Assembly (NCBI GenBank): GCA_000934665.2
Contig: KZ538868.1
Coordinates: 186,001-238,343, forward strand
Length of the DNA: 52,343 nucleotides
DNA from: Catajapyx aquilonaris
Lineage: Eukaryota
Direction: 5' to 3'
In this document: positions 762-29,350 of the stretch, one piece after another
Layout: every line of letters begins with the position of its first letter
How positions within the stretch are numbered: position 1 is the stretch's first letter
Notes under the pieces: generated by a model
Databases searched by the model: none
Seen by the model: only the letters and a program-made list of their open reading frames with translations
Told to the model about the DNA's origin: nothing
Position numbers and translations under genes: made by a program

Positions 762-2799
762 TCAGAGTTCTTTATCTGCTTTCTTAGGAGAAGGCTGTTT
801 CGGTTTGGGTTGTTGACCCGCAGCCTTCCAGTCCTCCTTGATCATATCTGCGGCCTTCTCTGCGATCATGATGGCCGGAGCGTTGGTGTTTCCACTGACC
901 ACCTCGGGCATGACGGAGGCGTCGACCACCCTGAGTCCCTCGACGCCCCTCACTCTTAGGCGGGGGTCCAGAACAGCCTCCTTGTCCGAATCCGGACCCA
1001 TCTTGCAGGTGCCCACGGGGTGGTAGAGGGTCATGGTGAACTGCCTGACGTAGCACTCCCAGAAGGAGTCTGTTCCGGGCTTGTGCTTCTCGCATCCGGG
1101 GAAAGGCCCCGTCCAGAGGGTGGCGTTGAGGGAGGACAGGGCTGGGGCCTCTCCCACCTTGGAGGACAACTGGATGCCCCTCAACAAGGTGGCGACGTCG
1201 TCCGGATGCTGGAGGTAGTTGGTCTGTATGTCAGGGTAGGCCTCCGGATCGTTGCTGGACAGACGGAGGTGACCGCGGCTCTTTGGATGCAGGAGTGCAG
1301 GAAAGACTATCCACGACTCGCGTCCAAAGTGTTGAGAGAATGACGACTGGTAGACCTGAGTGTCCAGACCGAATGGTGAGGGTCTTACCTCGCCCATCGC
1401 CAAGAACGACCCGCTCTGGAAATAGATCTGGATGTCTGGCCATTCCTTGTCCTTGTTCAGGTCCGTGCTGACGAAGGCAATGATCTCTACGCCTCCCGCT
1501 GAAGTCAGCAAGCCCTTGCCTCTCACCAGCCAGTTCTGAGAGGAACCACAATAGTGACGTCATTTGTGACTTATTAATCACACTACACCTACCCAAAAAC
1601 TTGAAATGGTGAGAGCATTCTTGGGGTTGGCGTCTATTTCAGCTTCGGTTAGGTAGATCATTGGTACCATAACGTGATCCTGCAAGTTGGCACCCACCCC
1701 TGGAGAGTGGTGCACCAAAGGAACCCCCACATCTTCCAGGTGATCCTTAGGGCCAACTCCTGACAGCAGCAGCAGTTGGGGAGATCCCACCGAGCCAGCA
1801 GACAGTATCACTTCCTTCCGGGCTCGAACAGTGCGAATGACCCCATCTTGTTTGTAGGAAACTCCGTACGCCTTCTTGTCCTTGGCTGAAATAAACCAAA
1901 GCGTTTTGTATTATAATTATCATCACCACAGCAGCTGTTTGCCAAGTGTATCACAATAACTGACGGCACTTACTATTGATCAGGACCTTGTGAACCGTGG
2001 CAAAGGTGGCCACGTGTAGGTTGGGCCTCAGACTGCCCCAAACTGGTGCAAGAAAGGCCTTGTCGGTGTCGCATCTGCCTCCGTCCCTGGTGGTGGTCTG
2101 GGCTGGCGTGAACCCGACCTGGTGCCGTCCATTGATGTCCCTTACCGAGTACCCCATCTCCTTTCCGGCCTGCAGGAACCTCCTGGCCATCTCCGACTTG
2201 TCTACCGTCTCCACGGTCAGAGGACCCACAGTCCCGTGGAAGTACTCGTGGTCGTCCTTCTCCAGCGGAGGGGAGTCGGCGGGGGGTCGTCGCCACCCCT
2301 CCGCCTTCTTGAAGTATCGCAGTGCCTCGGAGTATCCCCATCCGGTGTTGCCCAGGGACTCCCATCGGTCGTAGTCCCTGCGATTCCCCCTGACGTACAG
2401 CATGTAGTTGAGCAGACTGGAGCCTCCCAGCCCCTTTCCTCTGGGCCAGAAGGAGCGTCGTCCGGCCATGGCCCCGCAGGTGTCCTCCGGACAGCGGGCG
2501 TAGTAGGCAAAGTCCAGCGGGCTGTGCTGGACCATGAAGGCGGTGTAGGGGATGCGACAGGAGAGCCAGGCGACAGGTCCTGCGCTATGTGCGGGCCCTC
2601 CTGCGTCCAGCACCAGGACGGACCACTTGGAGTTCTCCGAGAGTCTCCTGGCCATGACGGCCCCTGCACTGCCCGCTCCCACCACCACGAAGTCGTACTC
2701 GTCCATCACTGGGTCCCCGAATGTTCCCCCTGCCGAGGACCACCACCACCACATCCAGGCCACCGTCAGGGCCACCGTCGCCGTCCTCCACCCTACCAT
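762..2799 (-). CDS. GMC oxidoreductase (glucose dehydrogenase-like) GMC1, ~630 aa, signal peptide, C-terminal DKEL
   Basis: Exons 2799-1974, 1885-1593, 1535-762 joined by GT-AG introns in matching phase (1, 0); 1893 nt. Motifs: [11 protein letters not shown] (FAD Rossmann fold), [49 protein letters not shown] (catalytic His), VSGNTNAP (Asn). Confidence 0.95.
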
Positions 2800-3273
2800 C
2801 CTCAGGCGGTGATGGTGCTGCTGTTTGCTCTCTCTCTTTCTCTCTCGGGATCAGCTGGAGGAAGGTGTGCTCTCACTCTTCGGTACTGAGCCAGAAAAGT
2901 AGTCCGCAGTGGGAAGGAAAAAGATACTCTTCCGACGATAAAATATGGAATTACAGCATTTTGCAAGGGCTCCCACTATTAGTCGATATAAATTTAACGT
3001 ACCGCATTGCCACACGTACTCAGTGGAAAGCGAATTATTGATGTACAGCGATCAACTACGGCGGTTATTCTGCCAGAATTGCCCATGTAATCCTACTCAG
3101 GGTGGGATGCCTGATCTAGGGGAGTTTGCTCAAATAGACTATTGTATGCGCCGTGGTATTTGCTATAACATTAAAAATCTATAATGCGGTGCCATTTCAC
3201 ACCATGTATTAAGAGGTAGGCTATACTTCGATTTTCAGACGGAATCTGGGACATTCTATTCTCATACAAGTAT

Positions 3274-3372
3274 ACAGCTGAATCCGGATAAACCAGACTT
3301 CAAGGAACCGCGGAAATCCGTGTTATAACCATGGTCAGTTTTATCCGATGATGTTATCCGGATTCAACTCTG
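3274..3372. mobile_element. Very short MITE-like inverted-repeat element
   Basis: TA-CAGCTGAATCCGGATAAAC on the left pairs with GTTATCCGGATTCAACTCTG ~80 nt downstream. CAG terminus after TA is Tc1/mariner/pogo-like. Confidence 0.4.
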
Positions 3373-4635: not shown

Positions 4636-6803
4636 CTAGAGTTCCACTTTGTCTGATGAGTGATGTTTGGGTTGCGCAGAGGACTCCATGTTCCAGTCTT
4701 CTTTAATCAAATCAGAAGCTTTTTCTCCTATCATAATGGAAGGAGCATTGGTATTTCCACTGACTAACGTGGGCATGATGGATGCATCTGCTACTCTCAA
4801 GCCCTTGATCCCCCTCACCCTGAGGCGCGAGTCTACCACTGATTCCGGATCTGAATCAGGACCCATTTTGCATGTTCCCGCTGGATGGTACAGTGTTATT
4901 GTCAAGTGTCGCAGGTAGCACTCCCAGAATGCCTCCGAACCTACTTGATCCTCAAAACCCTCACAGCCTGGAAGTGGTCCTGACCAGAGTTTGGACTCAA
5001 ATCCATCCTGCAGGGCTTTAGTGCGAGAAAGGCGGTGCACTAAAACACCTGCTTGAATCATATCATCTAGATCTTGTTGGTGACTGTAATAATTTGGATA
5101 GATTTTCGGATAGGCTTCTGGATCCTTGCTGGACAACTCTATGCTGCCTCGGCTACGGGGTCGGAGGAGAGTGGCCAGGGTGGTCCATGAGTCTTGACCA
5201 AGGGCAGGTCCAAATGCTTTGATGAAATTTTCCGCGGTCAAACCAAATGGTGGTTGAAGATCTTCTCTTATCTCCGCGTCAGAGAAGAACGTACGGGACA
5301 AGAAGTGTATCTGTATATCTGGGTAGTCTTCTGATTCGTGCCCTCCAACAGCTCTTTTAGTGTCCACAAAGCCAATTGCTTCCAGAGCGCATGGGATGGA
5401 CAGAGGTCCCGTTCCATTCGTCAGCCATTTCTAAGACAGTAAGAGGAACAATATTATTAATGAACAATATTATTTGCAGGAATATGCGCTTTGCTTATAT
5501 GCACAGACATTGACGTAACACCACTGGTTACTTTTGCCAATTATTAGTCGCATGTTGCAAATTACTAAACATTTAACTTCTGTGCTAAATAAGTATGTAG
5601 GCCTACTAAACATCTCGATATTCTAAAGATATTGATCTAAAATGTTGCTTTAGATTCTTTCAATGCCCTTGTTTTTTGATGAATAATTTGTGATATTATC
5701 AGGCTATAGGAGAAAAATTCTTTGCACAACAACATACTAAGTTACCTGTTACGTACCTCAACATTCAGCTGGGTGAAAACTCGAGCATCATTCACGGCAA
5801 CATTCTCCTTCACAACAAAATTGATGGGCGCGGCCACATGATCTTGAAGGTTTTGGCCGACTCCTGGTAGGTGAACAGCAACTGGGACGCCCATGTCCTG
5901 CAGGTGCTTCTCAGGCCCAATCCCGGACAGCAGCAAGAGGTGAGGTGAACCCACAGCGCCAGCAGACAGCACTATTTCCTTTCTGGCCGTGACCCTCCTG
6001 ATCTGTCCATCCCGCTTGAATTCCACCCCAACTGCCCGTCCCTGCTCCAGAATCACCCTATGGACCTGGGAGTGAGGGCTGATCCTGAGGTTGCGTCTGC
6101 CCTTGATGGGCTCCAAAAAGGCCTTAGCTGTGCTCCACCTGACTCCATTCCTGGTGGTGCACTGGTTCACCATGAATCCCGTTTGGTGCTCCCCGTTGCA
6201 GTCCCTGATGGGATACCCCATCTCCTGCCCGGCTTCCAGGTACGCCTCCAGCAGTGGAGTCTGCTCCTGTGGGTGCTCGACGGTGAGGTACCCTCCTTTA
6301 CCATGGTAAGGCGAGTCTGCCAGGTCTGGCGCCCGGTTGTCCTCCGATTTCTTGAAGTAGGGCAGGACATTTTCGTAGCTCCAACCGGGGTTTCCCAGGG
6401 ATGCCCAGTGGTCGTAGTCGTGTCTGTTGCCTCGGATGTACACCATGCAGTTGAGCACACTGCTGCCTCCCAGGACCTTTCCTCTTGGCCAGAAGGACCG
6501 GCCGTCCTTCATGGACAGGCAGTTCTTACCGTCTGATTCGGCGTAGAACTGCCAGTCCATGTCCGTCTGCATGGTGCGGCCGAAGAAGTAAGGGAGGGAA
6601 GAGATAGCCGATGCTTCTCCGCCTGCTTCCAGAAGAAGGACGGACCAATCTGGATTCTCCGAGAGACGGTTGGCCACCACTGCCCCCGCTGAACCAGCAC
6701 CCACCACTATGAAGTCATACTCGTCCTGGTCGGCAAGAACCGCGCCGCACCAACATGAGACGGTCAACACCAAGAAAGACAGCACTGACGATGACCGAAC
6801 CAT
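4636..6803 (-). CDS. GMC oxidoreductase GMC2, ~613 aa, signal peptide, C-terminal KVEL
   Basis: Exons 6803-5757 and 5430-4636, phase-0 GT-AG intron (...[14 protein letters not shown]...). All GMC motifs present, His/Asn pair. Start at [30 protein letters not shown] on minus strand at 4602-4607. Confidence 0.95.
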
Positions 6804-8016: not shown

Positions 8017-8032
8017 CATTTTGCAGCATATA

Positions 8033-9401: not shown

Positions 9402-9748
9402 GGGAGGCGAGGTGGTGCTGCGGTAACGTATGCGCCCACGGATGTTAAGGTCCCGGGTTCGATTCCAGCCCGGGGACACCCCCTTATCATCTCGTGCAGA
9501 GTTGGGTCGTCTCTGATGGCTTCGTCTCGGGTGGAATTTCCATAGACTAATCCACCCGGGGGAGATCACAAAATTACATTAGCAACGACATTACACTGCA
9601 CCTTGCACATCCCCTCACTGTCATCCCGCCCGTGGGTCCGGGCGTTTCGCAAATGGTTCCAATATGTACGGGTACGAAGATTAACAACAATAAACGTCCG
9701 TGCAAGATACCGAAAAGGTGAAGCACCACGATGATGATGATGATGAAG

Positions 9749-9820
<72 letters not shown>
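9402..9820 (+). mobile_element. tRNA-derived SINE with (GAT)n(ATT)n tail
   Basis: Pol III A-box TGGTGCTGCGG at 9413-9423 and B-box GGTTCGATTCC at 9456-9466, an unrelated body, then a microsatellite tail. Flanks ATTATTATGCCAA (9388-9400) and ATTATTATGTCAA (9815-9827) resemble a target-site duplication. Confidence 0.7.
9730..9820 (+). repeat. (GAT)5 plus (ATT)24 microsatellite
   Basis: Perfect trinucleotide runs directly visible. Confidence 0.95.
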
Positions 9821-9822
<2 letters not shown>

Positions 9823-9863
9823 GTCAATAGGAAGAAGTGCAGTATGATTTGCTGTCAAGTTTA

Positions 9864-12800
9864 TTACAATTCTTCTTTGATATGTGATGTTGGGGGGCCA
9901 GGCTTTCCCCAATCCTGCTTGATGAGATCCGATGCCTTCTCGGCCACCATAATGACAGCCGCGTTGATGGGTGCGCTGGGCAGCGTGGGCATCACGGAAG
10001 CGTCCACCACCCTGAGTCCCTGTATGCCCCTCACCCTCAGCCTGCTGTCGACCACCGCTTCTGGGTCATCTTCTGGGCCCATCTTGCATGTGCCCGCCGG
10101 GTGGTACAGGGTCTTGGTGAAGTGCCTCACGTAGCACTCCCAGAAGGGCAGAGAGCCCATCTGGAATTGCTCGCATCCCGGGAGTGGACCTGGCCAGAAG
10201 GAGGACTCGTACTCACTCTGCAAGGGCTGAGTCTTGGAGATGGCCACACCCAGACGAGCACCTCGGGTCAGGACTGTCGTGTCCTGCGGGTGGACCAAGT
10301 AGTTGGGACGGATGACCGGGTGGGATTGGGGGTCTGAACTGGACAGCTCCAGGGAACCCCTGCTCTTGGGTCGCAGCAGGGTCACCATCATCATCCACGA
10401 ATCTCGGCCGATCACAGGGCCATAGGCGGACAGGAAGGCCTCCTTCGAAAATCCGTATGGCGGGATGGGATTCTCGCCAACAGACTTCTCCGAAAATAAG
10501 GACTTGGATCCTATCATCAGCTGGATGTCGGGATAGTCCTCGTTGTCATAGTCTTCAGGTCTGGCGATGGGCTCACCGTTGCTGTAGAGATCCAGATGGC
10601 GGTGGGTATTTACAAATGCCATAGCTTCTACCGAGCAGGGACTGGAAATTGGGCCTGTTCCATTGGTCAGCCATCTCTGAAAATTATAAGAAAATTAATG
10701 CAGTGTGTTGAGCTATTGTGGGCGGTTTTCAAGTACCGGTACTCTATTCAAAAATTGTGTTGTTAAGTGGCTGCGTATTAGCGTAATTAAATTATGTTCT
10801 AAAAAAGAATACTGAAATAATTATGGAGTGCAGTTGAGCTCAATGGCCAGGCGCTCTCGAGACGTTGTCACAATGACATGCAGGCTCGACTCGGCCATAG
10901 CAGTAAATGAGTCATTTCTACGTGATATAATGAAGAAATAAATAATTATCATTTTATAATAAATGTTTCATGCTGTACAGCGTTATGCCATTCTATTCTG
11001 TGTACTCTAGAATTCTAGATCAATGGTAAAATTGTGAGAACATAAAACCGAAGGGAAAACCATGTGATTTACCATGGAGCATAATTATACAGCTCCAAGA
11101 TGTACTGTACTCTGCATGACTAATATATTGAGAAAGTTATTCTCATTAATGTAACATATTATCTAGTATAGTATTTAAACCTACCATGTAGAGCATGCAT
11201 CAACTGTACAGCATCAAATTTACTGCATCAGTAATTGTGCAAATTAGAGTATGTACATAATAATGCAACATACTGTATAATATGTTCATGTCATATACAT
11301 AATCAATTATTATTATCAGCGGACTTTTGAAAATCATGTTACAGGCACTATATGCGCTTTGATGCGCTTGTAGTGACTTAATTTTCCTCATACACTTGCC
11401 CTTCATACTGTGACAAGGGAGTACGTCTTCTTGTCTGGCTCCTGTCTATATTCCAATAGAACCTTGGTTAAACGGAGTATTGTCAGATCCACGGTCACAT
11501 CCATAATATTACAGATTAATGCTGGCTTTGTCCTCTTCAGTGTTTTAGAAGACATTAAAGTATTGATTATGCAAGTCAGTGTCGACTCCTTTCTCTAATT
11601 TGAGAAAGGTTGGAATCTTGAACAGCAGCCCACAAGTGTGGGGTGAAGAAGAATACCGCAGTTAGTTTGGGATGAATCATAAATGAAGTGTGGTAAGTCT
11701 ACATCTCTGGAACTTGAAGGCCTTCCTCACAGGATTATGGAGCAGGGATTTCAGTAGCGGGGAAGCAATGTTATTGGCCCTGCATGAATTTCACGAGAAT
11801 GATTATATACTGGGTCTTTATGTCAAATGGCATTTGTATATGTAATCATCCAATTATAAATCCTTGACCTCCAATTCGTTCGTTACTCGGTATAAGAACA
11901 AGGGGGTGGTCTTATAAAATTAATACGAGGATGCTGAAAGGCATTAGACAAGAAGTTAAATGACGATTTCTCGGAGCGACAGCTGATTATTCCATTTCTT
12001 CAAGAAGTCTGAAGAAAGAAAGATAAGACTTGTCTGAAGGTGGATTGTCTGGTAGCAATAAACTCAGATGTTGTTAAAATATAACCTGAACAGGTAAGTG
12101 CAGTGTGAACAGGTAACACAACAGCAACCCATTTTCATCCTAAAGACACTTACCTCTAAGTTTAATTGTGTCACAACCCTTGCGTCATTCATGGTCACGT
12201 CCTTCTTGACAAGAAAAGGGAGCGCAGTGGACACATGATCCTGGAGGTTTTGTCCCACTCCTGACAAGTGAACCTCAACAGGTACGCCCTTATCTTCGAG
12301 GTGCCTTTCAGGACCAATACCAGACAACATCAACAAGTGAGGAGAACCCAACGCTCCTGCAGACAAAATCACTTCCTTCCGGGCTGTCACCACCTTCAGT
12401 TGTCCGTCATGCTTGAGCTCAACACCAACGGCCTTTCCCTCCTCAAGAAGCACCCTGTGGACATGCGCCCTAGTGATCACCTTCAGGTTAGGCCTTCCTC
12501 TGACTGGACGGAGAAATGCTCGGGACGTGTCCCATCTCACCCCTTTCTTAGTGTTGCACGGGGCCACGGTGAATCCCGTCTGTTTTTCTCCGTTGCTGTC
12601 CCTCACCTCGTACCCCATTGCTTGACCCGCTGCCAGGTATGCATCCAACAAGGGTGTCTTGTAGGACGGGTTCTCCACAGCCAGGTATCCTCCTGCTCCG
12701 TGGTATGGAGAGTCAACCAGCCCCGGCACCAGCATGTCTTCTGATTTCTTAAAGTAAGGCAGGACGTCGTCATACCCCCAGCCCGAGTTACCCAGGGATG

Positions 12801-13200
12801 CCCAGTGGTCGTAGTCTCGTCGATTTCCACGGACATACATCATGCAGTTGAGGACACTGCTGCCACCCAGCACCTTTCCTCTGGGCCACAAAGAGCGCGT
12901 GTCATTCATGGACAGGGACGTTCTGTGGTCCGGCTCGGTTCTAAACCCCCAGTCCATGTCCGAGTTCTGTGTCCTGCCAGCAAGGTAAGGAAGGGACGAC
13001 ACGTGGTTGTCCGGTGCCTCCCTCCCTGCCTCTAACAAGAGCACTGACCATGCGCTTTCTTCCGAGAGGCGGTTTGCTGCAACTGATCCTGCAGACCCAC
13101 CGCCCACTACCACGAAATCGTACTCACTTCCTGCATCCGCAAAGCTGCACCACGTCACCATGAGGAAGAAGAACACAAGTGGTGTAAGTTGATGCTTCAT
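9864..13200 (-). CDS. GMC oxidoreductase GMC3, ~619 aa, signal peptide, C-terminal KEEL, His/Pro active site
   Basis: Exons 13200-12154 and 10676-9864, phase-0 intron (GAG|GTAAGT ... TTTCAG|AGA TGG). FAD motifs intact, [10 protein letters not shown] present; the SGNTNAP motif reads SAPINAA. Confidence 0.95.
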
Positions 13201-13507
13201 GTTCCTTTGATCTTTGAATAAACTGAAGTTCACTTGAAATCAATTGGAACTAATGTATATCTAGCTGTCACTTCATAAATGGTGCTGATGTGGACTATAA
13301 AGGACACTTCGATATTTCTGTTGCTGCCCCGCATTATCGCAGCTTGAGTCAAGTTCAAGAGGTCATAGTCTGGAAAAAAATATGCTTGGAGTATAGATTG
13401 CCTCAAGGTCATTATGCGTCAAGTAAGTTACTCTGCGCATGGCAAGCATGATATTGACAGATATATTTCAGGTATAATTGCTTGGACAGTACTAAATCAA
13501 TGTGTTA

Positions 13508-13634
13508 GGGCCGGTTTCACCGAACTCAGTATATGATAAAACCAGGGTTCTTTCTCAAAATCCCTATCTATTTGTATGGGATTTTCCTAAAGAAACGTGG
13601 TTTTATCATATACCAAGTTCGGTGAAACCGGCCC
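13508..13634. mobile_element. 127-bp palindromic MITE, PIF/Harbinger (Tourist)-like
   Basis: GGGCCGGTTTCACCGAACT...AGTTCGGTGAAACCGGCCC, with inverted symmetry along nearly the whole length. Flanked by TTA and TGA (near-match to a TWA target duplication). Confidence 0.75.
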
Positions 13635-15330: not shown

Positions 15331-17502
15331 ATGGACCCTGGGATGAAGTTGCTGTTCCTTTTGATCTCTCTCTGCTCATCGGCAGTGGCCAGAGAGGATG
15401 CAGAATTCGATTTCATCGTGGTTGGAGCCGGATCTGCGGGAGCAGTTGTGGCAAACAGGCTCTCGGAAGAGACAGAATGGACCGTTCTTCTTCTGGAGGC
15501 CGGAGGAGAGCTGCCTCACACCCACTTGACTGATGTGCCATACTTTACCGATCGCTCCAAGCACACCGACATCGACTGGCAGTTCTACGCAGAGAATGAC
15601 GGGAAAACGTCTCTGTCTATGAAAGACGGCCGTTCATTCTGGCCCAGAGGAAAGGTCCTGGGAGGCAGCAGCGTCATGAACAGCATGCTGTACATCCGAG
15701 GCAACAGACGGGATTACGACCTGTGGGAGACCTTAGGCAACCCAGGTTGGAGCTATGAAGACGTCCTTCCCTACTTCAAGAAGTCAGAAGACAACAGCAT
15801 GCCTGAGTTGCAAGACTCGCCATACCACGGCAAAGGGGGGTACTTGTCTGTGGAGCATTCCTCGTACAGGACACCACTATTGGACCCATTTTTGCAGGCA
15901 GGAGTGGAACTGGGCTACCCAACAATTGATTGTAATGGAGAGAAACAGACTGGATTCATGGTGTCTCAGGTTGCTTCAAGAAATGGAGTCAGATGCAGCA
16001 CAGCCAGAGCCTTCCTGGACCCAGTGAGAGGCAGGCCCAACCTCAGGATAGCCACCCACTCCCAGGTGCACAGGGTGCTGGTGGAGGGAGGGAAGGTCAC
16101 CGGGGTGGAGTTCAAGCAAGAAGGTGGGGAGGTGAAGAGGGTGAGGGCCAGGAAGGAAGTGGTGCTCTCTGCTGGGGCTGTGCAGTCTCCTCAGCTGCTC
16201 ATGCTCTCGGGGATCGGACCCCGGAAGCATCTGGAGGATGTAGGAATACCTGTGGTTCACGACCTGCCAGGGGTGGGCAGAAATTTGCAAGACCACGTGT
16301 CGACCATTCTTCCCTTCGTCACAATGAAAACTGTTTTTAATAATGATGGATACATTGCGACACAGCTGAATTTTGAGGTTTGTTTAGATTCTGTAGCCTA
16401 TACATTTGCTTTATTTGGTAGTTGTTGATTTCTCAAGGAAGAGTGGACAGGAAGTCTCCTTTTGACACCCTCTGCGACAGGGAAAATATGAGATAGGCCC
16501 TACTGACTACAGTAACCGTCTAAAACAGTAATAATATGGAAAGGGATACTGTAATATGCCCTAACATTACTCCTAAAGGCCAAAAGAGCGATGCTAATAT
16601 TGTAGAGAGCAATACTTGGTAATAATCGACAAAATAGGCATGCCACGTAATCGACTATGTAATTACAGAGATGGCTAACTAACGGCACAGGACCTCTAGC
16701 CATGCCTGGTTCATTGGAGGGCAAAGCCTTTGTCCACACTAAGCGACACCAAGACTTGGATCGAGACAAAGGAGAAACCATACCATCGAAAGACTTCACC
16801 GATCAGGACTACCCGGACATCCAGTTCCATTTTGTGTCCCGTTCCTTTTTCTCTGACCCAGAACTTCCTGTTGACCTACCCCCGCCATTCGGGTTGTCTC
16901 GAGAGGCTTACATGGCAACCTACGGGTCAGTCCTCGGGAGGGATTCCTGGCACATGGTGGTCACTCTTCTCAGGCCGAAAAGCGTGGGAAGCATAGAGCT
17001 GGCCAGTGCTGACCCAGAGGCCTATCCCGTCATCCGACCCAATTATTTCACAGACGAGCATGACCTTGACCTCGCGGACATGATACAGGGCGTCAGACTG
17101 GGCCATCGCCTCTCTAAGACTGATGCTTTGCAAAAGGACTACGAGTCTTCCTTCTGGTACGGCCCTTTCCCAGGATGCGAGGAGTTTCAGGACAAAGTTG
17201 GGTCCAGGGCTTTTTGGGAGTGTTATCTCCGGCACTTCACTATGACGCTGTTCCATCCCGTGGGAACCTGCAAGATGGGACCAGACTCGGACCCGGAGGC
17301 TGTTCTGGACCCGCGTCTCAGGGTGAGAGGAGTTGTGGGCTTGAGGGTGGCGGACGCTTCCATTATGCCCAACGTGGTCAGCGGAAACACAAATGCTCCT
17401 GCCATCATGATTGGAGAGAAGGCTGCAGATTTGATAAAAGAAGACTGGGAGAAAACGCCTTCACTCGCACCAAAACCATGCGCGAGAAAGGACGAGTTGT
17501 GA
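15331..17502 (+). CDS. GMC oxidoreductase GMC4, ~626 aa, signal peptide, C-terminal KDEL
   Basis: Exons 15331-16377 and 16669-17502, phase-0 GT-AG intron. Motifs [44 protein letters not shown] at 17532-17537. Alternative start ATG at 15343. Confidence 0.95.
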
Positions 17503-18155
17503 CTGTTTAGGCCTGTTCTCGAGCGAAGACCAATAAAAATATAGGCGTTAATGATTTATTGTATCCTTGTTTATTACCGGTATATTACAAGCTTTCCATT
17601 GCTTTAACTCAGATTTGAATGCAAGTAATGACTGAGTTAACTCTTGATATGCACAAAATCTGTAGACAGGCAGAAAAATAGTTTTTGTGTCTGCATTAAC
17701 ACTCAGGACAGACTATTGGTTAAAGAAGGTTTCCATGTCAAAAGGGCAGCCATCGGATGAATTTGCCGATGTATCATTTTTACGCCATCGAGTCTCTCAA
17801 TATCCGCATTGATAAATCAACGAATATTTTTGTAACTAAAACCTAAAGGGATTGAATTTTTTTGAGAATGTTCCACTGCATTACAAGCATAGAATTTCTG
17901 TTCCAATATTGAGGCTATTAATCTTCAATTGCTCCAGACATCATGTCCTTCTACTTGACCCTTAGCTTATACACGCTGGGGTTTACTTGAAGATACTCTA
18001 TCTCTTACATGAAGTGAGTAAAAATCCAACTCTCCTATGCCACGATAAGAGCTATAGATTGTGACCTTTTACAAATGAGAGTCACATGAGTGATAGTAGC
18101 TGCTTTGAAGAAGACTGTCTAGCAGAGAGTAGTAGAGACTGACTGATCTTCAATC

Positions 18156-20946
18156 ATGGAGGGGCCAGGGAGGATGGCGACATGTCTTGTTTTGGTGGTG
18201 ACAGCCGGGTACATCATAGCATCTGTGGCGGGAGAAACAGAGTTCGATTTCATCGTGGTTGGAGCCGGATCTGCGGGAGCGGTGGTGGCAAACAGACTGT
18301 CGGAAGAACCAGAATGGACAGTCCTTCTTCTGGAGGCCGGAGGAGAGCCCACTCGTCTCTCAGACGCGCCTTACTTCATGGACCGAGCCCAGCACAGCCA
18401 CATTGACTGGGAGTTTTACGCAGAGAAGGATGGAAAGACGTGCCTGTCCATGAAAGACGGACGATCTTTCTGGCCAAGAGGGAAGGTCCTGGGAGGAAGC
18501 AGCGTGCTCAACGCCAACATGTACATCCGAGGCAATCGTCGCGACTACGACCGTTGGACAGCTCTGGGCAACCCAGGTTGGAGCTACGACGAGGTCCTCC
18601 CATATTTCAAGAAATCCGAAGACAACCTGGTTCCTGAACTGGCTGACTCGCAATACCACGGAAAAGGAGGGTACTTGTCTGTGGAGCATTCGCCTCACAA
18701 GACGCCACTCTTGGATGCAATTTTAGAAGCAGGACAGGAACTGGGCTACTCAACAATCGACTGCAACGGAGAGCATCAGACCGGATTCATGCTGACCCAG
18801 CAGACCACCAGGAAAGGGGTGAGGTGCAACACGGCCAGAGCCTTCCTGGACCCAGTGAGAGGCAGGCCCAACCTGAGGATAGCCACCCACTCCCAGGTGC
18901 ACAGGGTGCTGGTGGAGGGAGGGAAGGTCACCGGGGTGGAGTTCAAGCAAGAAGGTGGGGAGGTGAAGAGGGTGAGGGCCAGGAAGGAAGTGGTTCTGTC
19001 TGCTGGAGCTGTGCAGTCTCCACAGCTGCTCATGCTCTCGGGGATCGGACCCAGGAAGCATCTGGAGAATGTAGGAATACCTGTGGTTCACGACCTGCCA
19101 GGTGTGGGGCGTAATTTGCAAGACCACGTATCGACTATGATACCCTTTATCTCCAAAAAGGATGTCTTTATTGATGACGCCCACGTAGGAACGCAGTTGA
19201 ACTTTGAGGTAGGCCTGCTTTTAAAACATTAGTTCACAGAGTATCACATCACTGTAGGTCTAAAGCCGTAGCTGGTTGAGCATGGTTGATAAAGGAAGCT
19301 TTTTGTGCAGATTGTAGGGTTAAAATCATAATAAGTTAATAAAAATTCTATTTTCATAATGTATTAAGCTGCAATCCAAAAATAATAACACAATACTCTA
19401 ATGAAGAAAGTGTTTAAAATGTAAGATCTAGAGTTTTGATAATCACAAATAATAGTACTAAGTGGCTTGGAGCCAAAAATTATAACTACTGACTCTATAA
19501 GGACATTCATATGGGACATCTGTGCAGAAAATTAAACACGAGAGAATAATGCAGTTCTTTCTTGTAAAGTACATCTGATTTATGTATCATGGGGCCATAA
19601 AGTTGCACAGAGACCTAACAACCCATGTCTCCTTTTGTAGAGTTCATTACAGTTTTATTAGGTTTCGTCAGGCAGAGTTTCGATTTCCATTGAAGTGATA
19701 TTGTAATAATTATGAATTTATACTTTTATATCACACACTACAGTGAAGTATAGCTGAGTGCCAAAAAGGCATGCACATAATTTATTTGATGCACTGTGAA
19801 TGTTATTTTAAAATAACCCGGTTTTATTTTTCTGACCATTTAATATCAGAAGTATGGTGGGAATGTTATGCTAGATTGTTTTTCGGCCTGCCTGGATCAT
19901 TTTTACTGCCTGTAGCCTACAGTGATTAGCTATTAAAAGCGTTTCAGCCATGACTGTCCTACATTTACTGGTAGGATACTGTATGGTGTATGCTAAATAT
20001 CCTATGGGGCAATGTCCTTCAGGTGGTCACTTGAATGACAAGACACAGAGTAACAGCAGCACGTAATTTAAATGATTTAATGAGATTGTAATTTCTCCGG
20101 CTATACCATTAACAGAAATGGCTGACCAATGGAACTGGCCCAATTTCTCTGGCGACTACCATAGAGGCCATGGCTTTCGTCCATACTAAACGACATCCAG
20201 ACCTGGATAAGGACGGGGTTGAAGCAGCAGCCGAAGATCTCCTGGACAGTGATTATCCAGACATTCAGTTTCACGTAGGCTCCCGCTCCATCTTTTCGGA
20301 CAAGGAGCTTCGGGAAGACTTGCATCCGCCATTTGGGCTGTCCAAAGAAGCCTTCATTGCAGCCTACGGGCCAGTCATCGGGACGACTTCGTGGGCCAAT
20401 GTGGTCACTCTTCTCAGGCCAAGAAGCGTGGGCAGCATAGAGCTGGCCAGCGCTGACCCGGAGGACTACCCTGTCATCCGAGCCAACTATTACACCGACG
20501 AGGAAGGTCGTGACCTTTCAGACATGATCCAGGGTGCCAGAATTGCCCTACGGTTTTCCAAGGCTGAAGCCCTGCAAAAAGGATACGAGTCCAGCATGTG
20601 GTCTGGACCACTTCCAGGATGCGAAGAGTTCGAGGACCAAGTTGATTCCAGGGCTTTTTGGGAATGCTACCTGCGACACTTCACCATGACCCTCTACCAT
20701 CCTTCGGGCACTTGCAAGATGGGGCCAGACTCGGACCCGGAGGCTGTTCTGGACCCTCGTCTCAGGGTGAGAGGCATCGAGGGACTGAGAGTGGTTGACT
20801 GCTCTGTCATGCCCAATTTGGTCAGCGGAAACACCAACGCTCCAACCATCATGATTGGAGAGAAGGCGTCCGATTTGATCAAAGAAGACTGGGGGAAGAA
20901 GCCTTCCCTCACGCCAAAACCACGTGTGGGAAAGGACGAATTGTGA
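18156..20946 (+). CDS. GMC oxidoreductase GMC5, ~627 aa, signal peptide, C-terminal KDEL
   Basis: Exons 18156-19208 and 20116-20946, phase-0 GT-AG intron. Motifs [38 protein letters not shown] at 20980-20985. Confidence 0.95.
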
Positions 20947-22157
20947 TTATGTACTAGCGTGTGAAGGACGTGCTAAACGAATAAATGAAAAGTCAGTGTC
21001 ACGTACAGGCCTATATATACTTTCATGCATAACGACAGTCTCCTTTCCATTGAGAATAGCAAAGAAATATTGTGTGCAAGACTGTACTGCATTCACATTT
21101 GACAGGCACATGCTGATGTATCAACTCTTAAAGAAATATAGTTTTATTTACAGTTATCTGGGAGTTCCTTGCCATTAATTACGTTGTCATACAAGTTGGT
21201 GAGGAGTATGTTCAGATCTGTGGGTATAGTAGCCACCTGAGGAATTTTTCAGCAATTTGTATAGTAATTTTACTGCAGAGGAGCTGCCAAACTAATCTTT
21301 AGTAATCGCAAATATAACAGCATACAGCACACTAGCTCTAACATAATACATGGCTTTACACTGTCACGATTTCCAAAAGCAGCGTTGCAATCAATGTGAC
21401 ATCCACTGTACCAGAATACAGGTAATAAATAATTTTCCCGTGTTTAGAACTGTTCAAAATCTACAATAGTAGGCCACCCGGAAATTAGAGGTTGACCATA
21501 ATCGCAGGTGCAGATATGATGTAAGTTATTAGACGTTTGTGAAATTAGCTGACAGTCTGCCAGTTCAAGTTTTGAAGTGCGTAAGAAAATAATTTAAATA
21601 TTTATTGCGAAAATATTTTGACCCAAAGTCTTTAAAATCCACTTGTTCAACGCCTTATTAATTACATGTAATATAAAATGCAGAGTGTTTTTTTTTCAAA
21701 ATTTCACTGCAATGCATTAGCGGAGGCAACAAGCTCTTAACTTGCTCACTAATAGTGAAGCTAAAATTATTAACCTGGCACTGGGATCAATTTTAAAAGT
21801 TTACTGACATCAACTGATGTAACACATATAATATTTATAATTGAAAACAAAATTTATAAGATATGGCTTATTACAGATCTGAACGCGTTAGAATTTTATC
21901 CCGACATGACGTAATCAATAAAGTGAAGTGGCCAGACATAACGACCTCTCTTTTTTACCGCAGTAGTCTGCTACATACAAGCAACTGCACTTGAAGATAG
22001 AGTATCGCAAAGGAGGGTGAAAATGCCATTTTTATGGAGGGTGATAAAATCCATACTGTGACCTTTCACAAATCAGCGCAACATGAGTGATAGCAGCTGA
22101 TCAGAAGAGCCCTGTCGAAGAACAGCAGTGGCGACAGACTGCTCCTCGAAACCGATC

Positions 22158-24140
22158 ATGGAGGGGCCATCAGGGAGGATTGGGGCATTTTTATTATTAT
22201 TGACCGCAGCCTCTTGTTGGTGCATCGTAGCATCTGTGGCGGGAAATGAGGCAGAGTTTGATTTCATCGTGGTTGGTGCTGGATCTGCAGGAGCGGTGGT
22301 GGCAAACAGGCTCTCGGAAGAGTCAGAATGGACAGTCCTTCTTCTGGAGGCCGGAGGAGAACCACCTCATCTGACTGATGTGCCTTACTTCGCCGATAGA
22401 TCCAAATACACAGACATTGATTGGCAGTTTTACGCAGAGAAGGATGAGAACACGTTTCTATCCATGAAAGACGGCCGTTCATTTTGGCCCAGAGGAAAGG
22501 TCCTGGGAGGAAGTAGTGTCATGAACTCCATGGTGTACATCCGAGGAAATCGACACGACTACGACCGTTGGGCAGCTCTGGGCAACCCAGGTTGGAGCTA
22601 CGACGAGGTCCTCCCATATTTCAAGAAATCCGAAGACAACCTTGTTCCTGAACTGGCTGACTCGCCTTACCATGGTAGAGGAGGATATTTGTCTGTGGAG
22701 CATTCCTCGTACAGGACACCACTCATGGATGCGTTTCTGGAAGCCGGGAAGGAACTGGGCTACTCAACAATCGACTCTAATGGAGAGCATCAGTCAGGAT
22801 TCATGGTGCCTCAGTTTTCGACGAAAAATGGAGTCAGATGCAGCACAGCCAGGGCCTTCCTGGACCCAGTGAGAGGCAGGCCCAACCTGAGGATAGCCAC
22901 CCACTCCCAGGTGCACAGGATGCTGGTGGAGGGTGGGAAGGTCACCGGGGTTGAGTTCAAGCAAGAAGGTGGGGAGGTGAAGAGGGTGAGGGCCAGGAAG
23001 GAAGTGGTTCTGTCTGCTGGGGCTGTGCAGTCTCCGCAGCTGCTCATGCTCTCGGGGATCGGACCCAGGAAGCATCTGGAGGATGTAGGAATACCTGTGG
23101 TTCATGACCTGCCAGGTGTGGGCAGAAATTTGCAGGACCACGTGTCGACTCTCCTTTCCTTCATCATGAAGAAAACAGTTTTTCATAATGATGCACACTT
23201 TGCTACACAGTTGAATTTTGAGGTATGGCCTGCTGTTATAATTCTGTTATAATTTCTGCATCATTCAGCATTCAATTGTGTATTTTAAAAATCCCCACAG
23301 AGATGGCTGACTAACGGAACTGGTCCTCTCGCCTTGCCTGCTTCAGTGGAAACAAACGCCTATGTTCATCCCAAGCGACACCACGACTTGGATCGAGACG
23401 ATGGAGAATCACCCACGCCCTCAGAAGAATCCCATGATCAGGACTACCCGGACATCGCGTTTCATTTTGGTTCGCGGTCCATATTTTCGGACTCAGGTAC
23501 TCGTGACGACCTACCACTGCCTTTCGCCCTGTCCAAAGAAGCATTCCAGGGAGCCTACGGGACAGTGATTGGGAAAGATTCATGGTCCATGTCGGTGACC
23601 CTTCTTAGGCCACGAAGTGTGGGTAGCATAAAACTGGCCAGTGCTGACCCAGAGGACCATCCCATCATTAGACCTAACTATTACAGCGATGAGCAAGGTC
23701 GCGACCTCGCAGATGTGATACAGGGTGCTAGATTAGCCCTCCGGTTGTCCAAAACTGAAGCGTTGCAAAAGGACTACGAGTCTTCCTTCTGGTACGGCCC
23801 TTTCCCAGGATGCGAGGAGTTTCAGGACAAAGTTGGGTCCAGGGCTTTTTGGGAGTGTTATCTCCGGCACTTCACTATGACGCTGTTCCATCCCGTGGGA
23901 ACCTGCAAGATGGGACCAGACTCGGACCCTGAGGCTGTTCTGGACCCGCGTCTCAGGGTGAGAGGAGTTGAGGGCTTGAGAGTGGCAGACGCATCCATCA
24001 TGCCCAAACTGGTCAGCGGAAACACCAACGCTCCTACCATCATGATTGGAGAGAAAGCTGCCGATTTGATCAAAGAGGACTGGGGAAAAAAGCCTTCCCT
24101 CGCGCCAAAACCACATGTGATGGGAAAGGATGAGTTGTGA
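22158..24140 (+). CDS. GMC oxidoreductase GMC6, ~634 aa, signal peptide, C-terminal KDEL
   Basis: Exons 22158-23222 and 23301-24140, 78-nt phase-0 GT-AG intron. ATG 22158 (MEGPSG) is homologous to the GMC5 start (MEGPG). All GMC motifs intact. Confidence 0.95.
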
Positions 24141-26337
24141 TTGTATAGGTCAATTGTTACGTGAAATCTATTAGATAAGAATTCAAAAACCTTAACGAAT
24201 TTGTCATTTGTTTTATTGCATTATAAAGTATATGCATTACAATGACCATATATTTTGGTGCAAGTTATTATTGAAAATACACCTGACAGAATCAACCCAT
24301 CGGCAGGGGAAACGGGTATATTTGTTCATTATTACTGCCAAATAAATTCAGTGTTCATAACTGAATCACATCCATACTGGTTAAAATTTCCCAGATTATG
24401 ATTTCATCTCATGTCTGTCTACTCACCTTACTGGCGGTGAATTACTTTCATCGTGGAATTGCCATTTAGTGAACTTTTCAGGATCAAGTGAAATTCCACG
24501 CCAAACTTCAAAGTAAGTTCACAGGAGCGGAAGTCCGCGAAATATCCATTGATACGGATGGGACCTCGATTCTGAACTAGGTCGTGCATCATTATTAAAA
24601 TATTCTGCGTGCATCGAAATATTGAAATTCATTTGGGGCTCTGGTGTATTGCAGAATTCTGGTTGAGTAGGGCGCATTCCCCCAGGCGCCGCATCTGGCC
24701 CTCTCCTGCAGTCAGGAAGTGGGGGAAACGTGATTACCAGCCAACGAGACATTTCCACCAATACGGATATGAGCTCAAATCTGATATACACGGTACGGTG
24801 TCATTTTTGAAAATACATTACCAGGATATTATACAATCTGCAGAATATACCAGTATTTGCGGAATTCTTAAATACGGGCTAGTGGACAAGGACCATAACA
24901 TATCTTACGTAATGTTATATTCTCATGGGTGTTGTGACCGTTAGTGATTATTTCTTCTTGATTAGATGTGAATCACTTCTCTAGAGTACTCAGCGTTAAA
25001 GTCATATCTCTTTCCATCTTTCTTTCTTACCATGGTCAATTCAAGTTCAAGTGGTAGAAGGTGAGTTTACTGAGTTGTAGGCAAAGGTCAACAGGTTTGT
25101 GTCATATGAAACAGAGCGTGTTGTAATATTGAAGCTACCGGAGATGTGGAGTACATCCCTATTCGTCCTTGCCTGGTGTCAACGCATCATGTTCAGTAAA
25201 TAGAGTTGTCTCTACTGCATGTCCGCTAAAAATAGATATTACAGACTGTAACTGCCTCGGACATGACATATTCTTTAATTAATAAACTGGCTGCCAGCTA
25301 GGCCATCTTTTCCAGGGCATTAAAAATCTCTGACATGATGTCATACGCCTACGGACCTGTTATTTTGAGAGCCCTTTATTACAAGTGGCATCAAAATTAA
25401 AACGAGAGTCGCATTACCGTAGTGCCATATCAGTTCCACTTTGGTGACAAAGCAGGATTTCGATCCCGAGCTGTCCGAGTTCCTGACGCAAACACGGGGT
25501 GCTTTGTCATTAATGCAGCATGAGTCCCAGTAAGATCATCATGTCGGGCCACCACTCAAAAATAAAAGGCTCTCTGAAAACAAGTGCAGGAAAGTAGCAA
25601 CAATACTGAACAAGCCCTAACGTGTTGCATGATGGGGAGTTATGTATAGTAGAAGTCACTGAAATTTTATTGCTGCTTTTGCTGCGTTTGTAAATTATTA
25701 TTGCATTCATTATTTTGTTGCTAATTGTTTGGTTAACATGAAACTCGATACCTGACTGGAAAAATAAATTATTCTGCATACTACCCTTCGGAAAGTAATA
25801 TCAATAACGTACCTTAATGGTTTAGTAAATAAAGTTGTCAGGCAAATGATATATAGGTGGAGTTAAGAAGGTGCAGGTGATGCCTGCAAGAAAAGGGCTT
25901 AGGTTAAAAAATAAGTTCAAGCAAGGGCTGCACCTCATTTTACTCAATGCTTTTAGCATAGACCGGTGTTGCGTGCCTGCACGGACCATCGCTGCCATAT
26001 TGATTTTTTGACGAACTGTTGGCCAAAAGGAAGGAAGCGCTTCTTATCCCGAGAAGATGATAAAAGTTCAAAGAGTCCTTACTTTGATGGCCATCTTTTT
26101 ACTCATCCTTGGTACAAAAGTCAGCGGATTTTTATCTCTTAAGAGCTATCTATGAAGTCTAAGTATTTTCCACTGTACAGTATTTTATTGGTAATCAATA
26201 TTACACAATTTTGACTCTAGAAGCTTGTAGCCTTGCCTATCCGAAATTAATGAAATCCACTCATATATTCACAGCCTGATCTTCATTTATTGTGACACAT
26301 TTAAAACAATGCCGTACGTCTTACAGTCACAATGATT

Positions 26338-29300
26338 TCAAAGTTCATCAATTTCCCTGACTGGTCGAGGCTGATGGGATGGGCGCTTCCCCCAGTCCTC
26401 CTTGATCAGATCGGACCCCTTTTCGCCGATCATGATGATGGGAGCATTGACGTTACCGCTGACCATGACAGGCATGACCGACGCGTCCACCACCCTCAAC
26501 CCTTGGATGCCTCTCACTCTCAAGCGTGGGTCCAGCACCGCATCCTTGTCCGAATCTGGTCCCATCTTGCAGGTGCCCACCGGATGATAAGTGGTCATGG
26601 TGATCCTTCGCAGGTAGCACTCCCAGAAGGCCCTAGACCCAACTTGGTCCTGAAACTCCTCGCACCCTGGGTGCGGCCCGTACCACAGGGTCGACTCGTA
26701 CTTCTTCTGAAGGGCCTGGGTGCGGGCCATGCGGTGGGCCAACCGGGCACCCTGTATCATGGTCCTCATGTCGTAACCTTCCTTATCGCTGTAATAATTG
26801 GGTCGGATGGTCGGATGGGCCTCCGGGTCAGCGCTGGCCAGCTCTATGCTTCCGATACTCTTTGGCCTGAGGAGCGAAATCACGTTCATCCAGGAGTCCT
26901 TGCCCAGCACTGGTCCGTAGGCTGCCAGATACGCCTCTTCGGACATCCCATAGGGAGGGTGCAGGTCGTCCCGAAGAGATTTGTCAGAAAACATTGAGCG
27001 GGACACTAAGTGGAACTCGATGTCTGGAAAGTCCTCGTCTCGAAAGCTTTCTCCCTCAGATGTTTCATCAGCGTCCTTATCTAGGTCGTCATGACGCTTC
27101 GTGTCGAGAAAAGCTTTTGCCTCTACTGACACAGGCATTGAGATGGGACCAGTACCGTTGGTTAGCCATCTCTGGAAGGATTGAAAATTCCTGTGAGTTA
27201 AAATGTATTCTGCCTGAGAACACATATCACATAATTGTTAGTTTATTGTTGATAATATTGAGGGTCATTTTTGTTCGTCGGAGAAATACAAGTGACTTAA
27301 TAATACAGTCGTTAATACTAAGCCTAAAAGCGTAGGCTGTTAAGAACAGGCTTCCACATCCGCATAATATTTCCGTTTTATATTGAATAATAGTCTAGTC
27401 TGTAATCATTGTGGGTATTTACCAGGATGTGAAAGCTTGGATTAAATGTATGGAAGATTATTACCAAGTACAAAACTTTTTAAAAAGTTTTGCCTGCCAA
27501 TAATCTCCCCCTAGAACAAAATTCCAATTAGACATCCCTTAAATCCGGATGCACTCTATTTCAGCCTATCAGATCGATATTTATTCAGTACCGGCACCCT
27601 GACCCACCTTCGTGATTATGATCCAAAAGTGAGTTGTTACCGACGCCATCAAATGTGAAAGTTTTGACATGAATTAACTTCTAATCAATATTGACGTTGA
27701 TAGATGACTAAGCGTGTCAGGAGATGTCGTCTACTGAGTTTGACACTCGTACTGTAGCTGTCGCACAAAAAATTGTCACCCAAAGGAAAATAATTGGAAT
27801 TGCAGTGGCTGATAGTGACAAGTCCTGCTTTATTTATGACAGCATTTTATTAATTTGTGCCATATGTACTAAGTGGGCATGTCATAAATGGAACACATTC
27901 CATGATTACAGCAACGTAGTGTATGAAATCGATACAGTTTTTTAAACCATAGAATCATAGATCGTCGCATATAGCCACGTCCCCTCATATTATTATGTAT
28001 AGAAACCTAAACGAAATGCAGAACGATCTGAGTCACACTGGAATTTAGTTTGAAGCTTGAAATCCGCATTATTTATGTGGATCCTTTTTATTCAAAACAT
28101 CTTTATGGGACTTATTCACATATCAGATAACTGAACTGACCATCAGAAATCACTCGTCAAGGGCAACATTACACAACGCCTAATCAACTGCGAATGTTAA
28201 GTGACAATCATACATATCGTGCTTACTTGGACGCATCTTTGAACTTATTCTGCACTCTCATTAGTATTAAAGGCTCATTAATGCACTAATTAGTAAACAC
28301 GATGGACCATACCTCAAAATTCAGTTGGGTAGCGACGAGGTCATCATTATTGGACACGCTCTTCTGAATGACGAATGGGACCACCGTGGCTGTGTGGTCC
28401 TGAAGATTCTGCCCTACTCCTGGCAAGTGATGCACAACAGGTATTCCGACGTCCTTGAGGTGCTTCTCAGGTCCGATACCCGACAGCATCAGCAGCTGGG
28501 GCGAACCCAGAGCCCCAGCAGAGAGAACCACCTCCTTCCTCGCTCTCACCCTCTTCAGCTTCCCACCTTGTTTGAATTCCACTCCAGCCGCCTTCCCGTC
28601 CTCGAGAAGCACTCGATGGACGTGAGCTCGCGTTGATATTTCCAGGTTGGGCCTTCCTCTGACTGGATCCAGGAATGCCTTTGCAGTGTGGCATCTCTCT
28701 CCGTTCCGAGACGTGTACTGGGCCACCATAAACCCAGTTTGACTTTCTCCATTGCAGTCGGTCACAGGGTAGCCCAGTTCTCTTCCGGCTTCCAGGTATG
28801 CTTCCAGAAGGGGTGTGTTGTACGAAGGATGCTCGATGGAGAGGTACCCGCCTTTTCCGTGGTAAAGCGAGTGTTGCAGGTCGGGCATGCGGTTGTCTTC
28901 TGATTTCTTGAAGTATGGCAGGACGTCTTCGTAGCTCCAGCCTGGGTTGCCCATGGACTCCCAGATGTCGTAGTCCTTTCGGTTGCCTCGGATGTACATG
29001 AGGCTGTTCAGAACACTGGTTCCACCCAAGACCTTTCCTCTGGGCCAGAATGAACGGCCGTCCTTCATGGACAGGCAGGTCGTTCCGTCTGGTTCGGTGA
29101 AGAACTCCCAGTCGACGTGAGAGTGCTGGACTCGATCGGCAAAGTAAGGCACGTCTCCCATGTGAGGGACTTCCCCTCCTGCCTCCAGCAGCAGCACTGA
29201 CCATTCAGGCTCTTCCGACAAACGATTTGCCACCACCGCTCCTGCCGAGCCGCCTCCTACGACAATGAAGTCATACTCATGCTCTTCCGCCCAGGCACAT

Positions 29301-29350
29301 AAGGAAAATGGTGATGCCAACAGAACCAGTATTAAGGACTTGGCGTCCAT
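26338..29350 (-). CDS. GMC oxidoreductase GMC7, ~623 aa, signal peptide, C-terminal IDEL
   Basis: Exons 29350-28313 and 27171-26338, phase-0 GT-AG intron. Motifs [45 protein letters not shown] on minus strand at 26286-26291. Confidence 0.95.

Follow-up and report, generated by a model that had tools for sequence, protein, structure and literature searches.

Seven tandem GMC flavoenzyme genes of Catajapyx aquilonaris with hydrophobic leaders and KDEL-like tails that point to the endoplasmic reticulum lumen

The GMC oxidoreductases rank with the largest of the expanded enzyme families in arthropods; for the most part their functions are obscure, and they are generally taken to be secreted into haemolymph or saliva or by glands. 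Glucose dehydrogenase (GLD), an insect and crustacean member of the family, is a secreted protein. The mammalian liver carboxylesterases (CES1 family) form a tandem family of soluble enzymes acting on small molecules within the endoplasmic reticulum (ER) lumen and kept there by varied C-terminal xxEL (HxEL) tails. Here we analyze a stretch of 52,343 nucleotides from Catajapyx aquilonaris (assembly GCA_000934665.2, contig KZ538868.1, positions 186,001 to 238,343 of the forward strand), referred to as the window, which contains between positions 762 and 29350 seven intact genes for GMC flavoproteins, G1 to G7, arranged in tandem. All seven encode a hydrophobic leader at one end and a tetrapeptide of the xxEL type, resembling the KDEL retrieval signal, at the other. 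Residence in the ER lumen, maintained by KDEL-receptor retrieval, is the best reading of this combination, and we assign to it a probability of about 0.6.

The array is predicted to encode oxidoreductases dependent on flavin adenine dinucleotide (FAD), either oxidases or dehydrogenases acting on alcohols, which belong to the "glucose dehydrogenase-like" type of arthropods. The Pfam scan covered 7 of the 15 exons, the others being assigned from protein alignment: GMC_oxred_N was found in all three exon-1 translations tested (G2, G4 and G7; 189-200 bits, cut-off 23), and GMC_oxred_C in all four last-exon translations tested (G1, G2, G4 and G7; 132-147 bits, cut-off 24.6). The FAD motif [YF]DF[IV]VVG[AG]GSAG, of the GxGxxG type, and the motif HP[VAS]GTCKMG, containing the catalytic His, are present in 7 of 7 proteins. 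GN[TV]NAP is present in six, and its first Asn corresponds in the alignment to the "GHT" His of solved alcohol oxidases; enzymes of this family have a catalytic His with a His/Asn partner about 44 residues downstream. In exon 2 of G3, SAPINAA is found where the other six have SGN[TV]NAP, placing a Pro at the position of the Asn partner, and the chemistry of G3 may be altered, or its activity lost. Despite this Pro, G3 is under purifying selection, its ratio of nonsynonymous to synonymous substitution (dN/dS) against G2-G7 being 0.09-0.16.

At the C-terminus, the tail starts with IKEDW in six genes and IKQDW in G3, and continues with a variable linker of 10-17 residues, rich in Pro, Lys and Ser, which leads to xxEL and the stop codon. 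The terminal tetrapeptides, from G1 to G7, are DKEL, KVEL, KEEL, KDEL, KDEL, KDEL and IDEL. In all, the extension covers 14-21 residues beyond the final helix of the fold. In alignments with G4, solved alcohol oxidases stop 1-3 residues past the stretch matching ..AADLIKED (the LIKED helix), so that the tail lies outside the fold. Two other kinds of C-terminal signal were considered and rejected: a peroxisomal tail of the SKL type, no such motif being present, and a glycosylphosphatidylinositol-anchor tail, there being no C-terminal hydrophobic stretch.

Protein identity is about 51% between G1 and the others, and 59-81% among G2-G7; this spread of 50-81% suggests that the enzymes may differ in substrate, by analogy with other detoxifying or biosynthetic families of the ER. 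Synonymous divergence (dS) ranges from 0.54 to 0.84 within G4-G6 and exceeds 1.4 in all 18 other pairs; on the whole, saturation is largely reached at synonymous sites. A dN/dS between 0.06 and 0.32 in 21 of 21 paralogue pairs shows purifying selection on all seven genes. The terminal Glu is encoded by GAA or GAG and the terminal Leu by CTC, TTG or CTT, and the linkers vary in both length and sequence. Since E-L has been kept with varying codons through saturated dS, it is the residues and not the DNA that are conserved, and the xxEL tail itself is under selection.

The leaders are 25-34 residues long, with a hydrophobic core, and lie 3-11 residues ahead of the FAD motif in 7 of 7 proteins. 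According to a home-made heuristic, which is not a trained signal-peptide predictor, they feature an uncharged run of 9-23 residues, and their most hydrophobic 10-residue segment averages 1.7-2.7 on the Kyte-Doolittle scale. In all of them, small residues that agree with the (-3,-1) rule occur right before an acidic stretch and the FAD motif. The leader of G1, with its WMWWWW, is peculiar and the least hydrophobic of the set. None of the leaders is an amphipathic, Arg-rich presequence, and the sole other hydrophobic peak of transmembrane type is a conserved Rossmann segment. A glycosylation sequon, the NGT of WLTNGTG, is found in G2-G7 and is the only one which they have in common; G1 reads WLVRGKG at that site and has a separate NAT sequon elsewhere.

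Most of these features had been proposed in an earlier note, made from the letters of this DNA, and have stood up well. The seven intact genes are supported by open reading frames (ORFs), splice sites, single stops and Pfam; the short distance between leader and FAD motif holds in all seven by the heuristic, as does, by alignment, the succession of IK[EQ]DW, variable linker and xxEL. Selection on the tail, also claimed in the earlier note, agrees with dN/dS, with saturated dS and with the varying Glu and Leu codons, and the NGT sequon is indeed kept in the second to seventh genes.

How well such tails would work may be judged from human cells. The PROSITE pattern for ER proteins, [KRHQSA]-[DENQ]-E-L, fits four of the seven tails (KEEL and the three KDEL). 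The accessible parts of the study by Raykhel et al. (2007, PMC2140024) report working KDEL variants going far beyond PROSITE, and list KDEL, KEEL and KVEL as directing either reporters or native proteins to the ER, with KVEL serving ERp27 as its ER signal and KEEL occurring on the flavoprotein FOXRED2. With KVEL as a reported variant, five of the seven proteins end in tetrapeptides reported to localize to the ER. According to the same source, position -4 is best occupied by K, R, H, N, F, W or Y, position -3 tolerates all residues except Pro, and position -1 is L or F (PMC2140024). Because they match these rules, as far as the source gives them, the tails of G2-G6 are expected to be efficient, while G1 (DKEL) and G7 (IDEL) may be held less tightly in the ER.

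KDEL-like tails recur among the relatives of the array. Searches with the C-terminal half of G4 led to arthropod proteins named "glucose dehydrogenase [FAD, quinone]-like", at most 51% identical. When 1.84 billion representatives were searched exhaustively with HMMER, full-length matches reached about 55% identity over the C-terminal half, and two short fragments were 66-69% identical over part of the domain; the sequences sampled include no close relative of the window family. A protein atlas gave nothing beyond generic GMC_oxred_C clusters. Among the 150 nearest cluster representatives, 20 end in EL and 4 more in EF; EL is by far the commonest C-terminal dipeptide, and 19 of the 20 EL-tailed proteins have K, H or R at position -4. 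The EL ending was found in only 2 of 120 GLD-like arthropod hits to the C-terminal half of G4, and in none of 97 new GLD-like hits.

A profile, A1, built from 20 proteins ending in EL or EF, retrieved 110 new hits, from mosquitoes, sand flies, midges, ants, a parasitoid wasp and beetles. Of these, 81 end in EL, a proportion enriched by the design of the profile, the unbiased figure being 20 out of 150. K, H or R occupies position -4 in 74 of the 81, and the tails include KDEL (24), HEEL (12), HSEL (8), HTEL (8) and others.

A peculiar arrangement was observed in culicids (P0373-P0451), where isoforms of one gene share an identical N-terminal part of 97-99 residues, followed by alternative C-terminal cassettes of about 530 residues. 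The cassettes are 46-52% identical and each has a tail of its own: KDEL, RDEL, HNEL, HTEL, HTEF, HSEL, HVEL or RTEL. This multi-cassette gene was found in five culicids, Topomyia, Toxorhynchites, Aedes albopictus, Malaya and Culex. The same architecture has been described for Anopheles GMCbeta4 (Iida et al. 2007, PMC1891103, in the text accessible), and from this shared architecture we infer that the mosquito gene is GMCbeta4.

In a tree of the C-terminal domain (FastTree, 122 rows), all seven proteins of the window fall into a single clade (support 99), and the other EL tails are clustered but scattered. The array represents a lineage-specific expansion, since its seven rows group together. 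In the full-length tree (IQ-TREE quick, LG+G4, 74 rows), G2-G7 form a clade with support 100, and G1 falls in the unresolved backbone. The same tree features an insect clade of Diptera, Hymenoptera and Coleoptera (support 98, 25 rows, 17 of them EL/EF-tailed) and a GLD clade (support 99, 20 rows) which includes none of the seven window proteins. Without constraints, the window proteins are left outside the insect KDEL-tailed clade, the backbone being unresolved. Placing them together with the insect clade, a group named after the tree had been seen, was not rejected by the approximately unbiased (AU) test (p-AU 0.52, log-likelihood lnL +0.59), and it is possible that the tail is shared by descent between the two clades. 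A clade of all 26 EL/EF-tailed rows was tried and rejected (AU p 7.6e-62); this test was badly posed, as tail-less rows (Bradysia, Chironomus and others) nest within the insect clade, and it is silent on a single origin. What it does show is that the tail has been lost or gained within clades.

The earlier note had taken the array for a lineage-specific battery of ER enzymes. The expansion itself stands, with its clade support of 99; the tail does not belong to this lineage alone, being common in insect relatives (20 out of 150, and 81 out of 110 in the enriched set). The note had also regarded its proposal as failing if such tails proved common and already characterized in related subfamilies: common they are, while our literature search found no characterization of them. 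No paper linking GMC enzymes with KDEL or ER-retention signals came up in a full-text search, which did not cover subscription journals. The accessible text of Iida et al. (2007, PMC1891103) contains no mention of KDEL, retention, endoplasmic, signal peptide or secreted, and a 2025 survey of the GMC family none of subcellular, endoplasmic, KDEL or signal peptide. The tail is thus, apparently, a widespread and undescribed feature of arthropod-type GMC enzymes.

If the array encodes ER residents, the leader would direct each protein into the ER and then be cleaved. FAD would be bound in the lumen, where G2-G7 may also acquire a glycan at their NGT site. In the cis-Golgi, xxEL would be displayed to the KDEL receptor by the flexible Pro/Lys-rich linker, and the receptor would send escaped enzyme back by COPI vesicles, so that the ER lumen would be the steady-state location. 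There, the enzymes would oxidize hydroxyls of small substrates, either lumenal or dissolved in the membrane, and pass the electrons to O2, producing H2O2, or to a quinone.

Several considerations weigh against this proposal. To our knowledge, the characterized GMC enzymes of insects and other animals are secreted. GLD-like relatives were found without any such tail, the abundance of tails among profile A1 hits owes much to the way in which the profile was built, and the leaders were scored by a heuristic only. The preferences of the receptor were established in human cells, and those of Catajapyx may be different. DKEL and IDEL fall outside PROSITE, and the D and I at position -4 are not among the efficient residues reported in the accessible parts of PMC2140024. 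In the same source, many of the proteins in Table I of Raykhel et al. were kept in the ER without their tail, which makes a tail neither necessary nor sufficient. Armet, finally, has a KDEL-like signal and yet occurs in aphid saliva, according to the part of that report available (PMC13256243), indicating that these signals can be leaky.

Secretion, leakage and the two off-consensus tails would all be accounted for if these were ordinary secreted GMC enzymes, comparable to insect glucose dehydrogenase or the leaf-beetle oxidases, in which xxEL is not recognized by the animal's own KDEL receptor, or is overridden in the tissue that secretes them, and is kept for some other reason, e.g. stability or contact with another protein. 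We consider this unlikely. E-L has persisted although synonymous divergence is saturated and the linker varies freely; position -4 of the EL tails of relatives is K, H or R in 19 of 20 and 74 of 81 cases, matching the preference of the receptor; the F found at position -1 in the four EF relatives is also permitted by the receptor; and a C-terminal [KHR]xEL fits no other known role. A mixed or regulated location, with G2-G6 as an ER store or working pool and G1 and G7 escaping to act extracellularly, would be in keeping with tails of different expected strength and with G1 being both the most divergent protein and the one lacking the NGT sequon. Its closest parallel is the mouse carboxylesterase array, some members of which have lost HxEL and become plasma enzymes. 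In the present array, by contrast, none of the seven genes has lost the E-L ending, G1 and G7 included; we rate a mixed location as slightly less probable still than plain secretion. Very improbable, in our opinion, is an N-terminus acting as an uncleaved signal anchor, or as the signal of another organelle, with a catalytic domain not free in the ER lumen. The leaders do lie very close to the beta strand with which the FAD fold opens, and that of G1 is unusual in composition and the least hydrophobic. Each hydrophobic core is, however, followed by small residues of the (-3,-1) type, the leaders do not resemble amphipathic Arg-rich presequences, and a tail for retrieval to the lumen would serve no purpose on a protein of the cytosol or the mitochondria.

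Part of the array could be followed at the transcript level. Contigs of the run X5 were mapped to positions 15200-29500, i.e. to G4-G7; the kind of this run is unrecorded, and it was treated as RNA-derived because it contains GT..AG joints, which the DNA run X1 of that organism lacks. X5 joints coincide with the modelled exon ends at 16377/16669 (G4), 19208/20116 (G5), 23222/23301 (G6) and 28313/27171 (G7, reading CT..AC on the plus strand), and none of these four joints was found in X1. The G5 joint has 242 letters on its shorter side; that of G4, which skips 291 bases, has just 22 and a patchy cover, and its support is weaker. No weight was given to stretches which X5 leaves uncovered. X5 contigs are colinear past the stop codons of G5 (20435-21109), G6 (23763-24374) and G7 (26310-26849), into the 3' flank, and since they read through the stops without a joint, the tails of these three genes are transcribed. 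No other joints were reported in X5 between 15200 and 29500, where there is no sign of the alternative terminal exons which, in the earlier note, could have undone the proposal. At least three genes, G5, G6 and G7, are thus transcribed and spliced as modelled, G4 with weaker support.

The gene models were derived from stop-to-stop ORFs and a reading of splice sites. Paired long ORFs with GMC motifs occur on both strands between 762 and 29410, and the limits of the array correspond to the stop codon of G1 (762) and the start codon of G7 (29350). Coding sequences are 613-634 codons long, with a single terminal stop in 7 of 7; G2-G7 have two exons each and G1 three. A common phase-0 GT..AG intron, ..QLN[FLV]E / [RK]WLTNGT, interrupts G2-G7 at one position, and G1 has the homologous intron along with an extra one. 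The G+C content of the array region is 42-52%.

G1, G2 and G3 lie on the minus strand. G1 (2799-1974, 1885-1593, 1535-762; 630 codons) starts at 2799; its exon 1 (1974..2799) contains the 34-residue leader (2799-2698) and the FAD motif, and ends with the phase-1 donor A/GTAAGT. Exon 2 (1593..1885) has the acceptor TTTCAG/CC and the donor TGG/GTAGGT, and closes the frame to the 630-codon coding sequence. Exon 3 (762..1535), matching GMC_oxred_C with 147.5 bits, ends in ..ADKEL (DKEL 765-776, stop 762-764). G2 (6803-5757, 5430-4636; 613 codons) has its leader at 6803-6720 in exon 1 (5757..6803; GMC_oxred_N 199.8 bits, donor GAG/GTACGT), while exon 2 (4636..5430; acceptor CTTAG, GMC_oxred_C 137 bits) ends in ..SDKVEL (KVEL 4639-4650, stop 4636-4638). 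G3 (13200-12154, 10676-9864; 619 codons) includes exon 1 (12154..13200), with the leader at 13200-13123 and an end set by the donor GTAAGT and by alignment, and exon 2 (9864..10676), with acceptor TTTCAG and the ending ..HIKEEL (KEEL 9867-9878, stop 9864-9866). A long microsatellite of the AAT/ATT type, at about 9694-9860, lies immediately 3' of the G3 stop codon and shows up as poly-Ile and poly-Tyr ORFs.

The next three genes are on the plus strand. In G4 (15331-16377, 16669-17502; 626 codons), exon 1 (15331..16377; Pfam 189.2 bits, donor GTTTGT) carries the leader at 15331-15405, and exon 2 (16669..17502; Pfam 132.5 bits) ends in ..ARKDEL (KDEL 17488-17499, stop 17500-17502). G5 (18156-19208, 20116-20946; 627 codons) comprises exon 1 (18156..19208; leader 18156-18242, donor GTAGGC) and exon 2 (20116..20946), ending in ..VGKDEL (KDEL 20932-20943, stop 20944-20946). 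G6 (22158-23222, 23301-24140; 634 codons) comprises exon 1 (22158..23222; leader 22158-22256, donor GTATGG) and exon 2 (23301..24140), ending in ..MGKDEL (KDEL 24126-24137, stop 24138-24140). G7 (29350-28313, 27171-26338; 623 codons) is again on the minus strand: exon 1 (28313..29350; Pfam 190.8 bits) contains the leader at 29350-29276, and exon 2 (26338..27171; Pfam 134.7 bits) ends in ..REIDEL (IDEL 26341-26352, stop 26338-26340). As a result of these orientations, G3 and G4 are head to head over 2.1 kb (13201-15330), a stretch that may be a promoter region common to both, and the arrangement of G6 and G7, 2.2 kb apart (24141-26337), is tail to tail.

Two tracts of high similarity were observed among the adjacent, same-strand paralogues G4-G6. 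Between G4 16087-16305, G5 18918-19136 and G6 22932-23150, 207-209 of 219 bases are identical in all three pairs, and between G4 17140-17334 and G6 23775-23969, 194 of 195; both tracts look like the product of gene conversion. An X5 contig differs from the window by four letters at 23009-23067, inside the 219-base tract; these letters may originate from a paralogue or an allele.

No eighth GMC copy or fragment was found in the window by tblastn with the seven proteins, which gave 12 merged intervals, all within the seven genes, and no pairs of stop-to-stop ORFs comparable with the GMC ones were found in the window beyond 29410. The 23 kb from 29411 to 52343 contain no long coding ORF of a recognizable family, a search which genes with short exons would escape. 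Similarly, a Pfam scan of 14 long ORFs outside the genes, 12 of them of 128-155 residues from 32-51 kb and two intergenic within the array, gave no matches. Runs of N in the window are found at 49258-49264 and 49738.

Taken by itself, the window adds a modest gain, one further lineage-specific expansion of a KDEL-tailed class. A wider reading, which we put forward tentatively and at somewhat less than even odds, is that a large and old branch of animal GMC enzymes, including the array, the clade of fly, ant, wasp and beetle proteins and the mosquito cassette gene, is lumenal to the ER and not secreted, and has been overlooked because of the "glucose dehydrogenase" label. A conserved KDEL-type tail would shift a substantial part of the family to the ER lumen, beside cytochrome P450s, carboxylesterases and UDP-glycosyltransferases, at a site where lipophilic metabolites, hormones and xenobiotics are processed. 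Such a location would change both the plausible substrates and the plausible electron acceptors, and predicts lumenal H2O2: if the wider reading is true, arthropod-type cells have lumenal FAD-dependent alcohol oxidases, and with them a second lumenal source of H2O2 beside Ero1. Roles in specialized metabolism, or in the oxidation of sterols, retinoids or xenobiotics, could then be envisaged. The tail would also provide a simple sequence criterion to divide hundreds of uncharacterized "glucose dehydrogenase-like" genes into retained and secreted ones.

The closest precedent in the literature is the aphid nepetalactol oxidase ApNEPO, of the GMC epsilon clade, which resembles the window proteins in being a GMC oxidase proposed as ER-lumenal, within a specialized-metabolite pathway (Koellner et al. 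2022, PMC9586269). That proposal comes from a predicted signal peptide alone; KDEL or HDEL are not mentioned in the text and supplement as far as accessible (PMC9586269). Human FOXRED2 (KEEL) and the prenylcysteine oxidase PCYOX1 (KTEL) are secretory-pathway FAD enzymes found in the ER, and resemble the window proteins in their KDEL-variant tails; unlike them, they belong to other flavoprotein families, are encoded by single genes and, according to the accessible parts of the same human-cell study, are ER-located even without the tail (PMC2140024).

The carboxylesterases introduced above differ in being alpha/beta hydrolases and not flavoenzymes, so that the analogy is limited to mechanism and gene organization. 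One variant of their HxEL tail, HVEL, is reported, in the part of the study available, as a strong ERD22 motif (PMC2140024). GLD proper, from insects and crustaceans, shares fold and motifs with the window proteins, with 44-51% identity to the C-terminal half of G4; in contrast to them, it is nearly devoid of the tail (2/120 and 0/97) and forms a clade of its own. The insect KDEL-tailed clade, which takes in the multi-cassette gene of culicids and whose members are named "glucose dehydrogenase [FAD, quinone]-like" in databases, differs at the N-terminus, where a region of 45-60 residues with a conserved ..AAQC.. motif precedes the FAD motif; the window proteins have their leader of 25-34 residues in its place, without ..AAQC... 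The two groups both combine PF00732 and PF05199, and both proceed through ..GNTNAP..IMIGEK..IKEDW and a short linker to a terminal tetrapeptide which, in the insect clade, reads [KHR]xEL.

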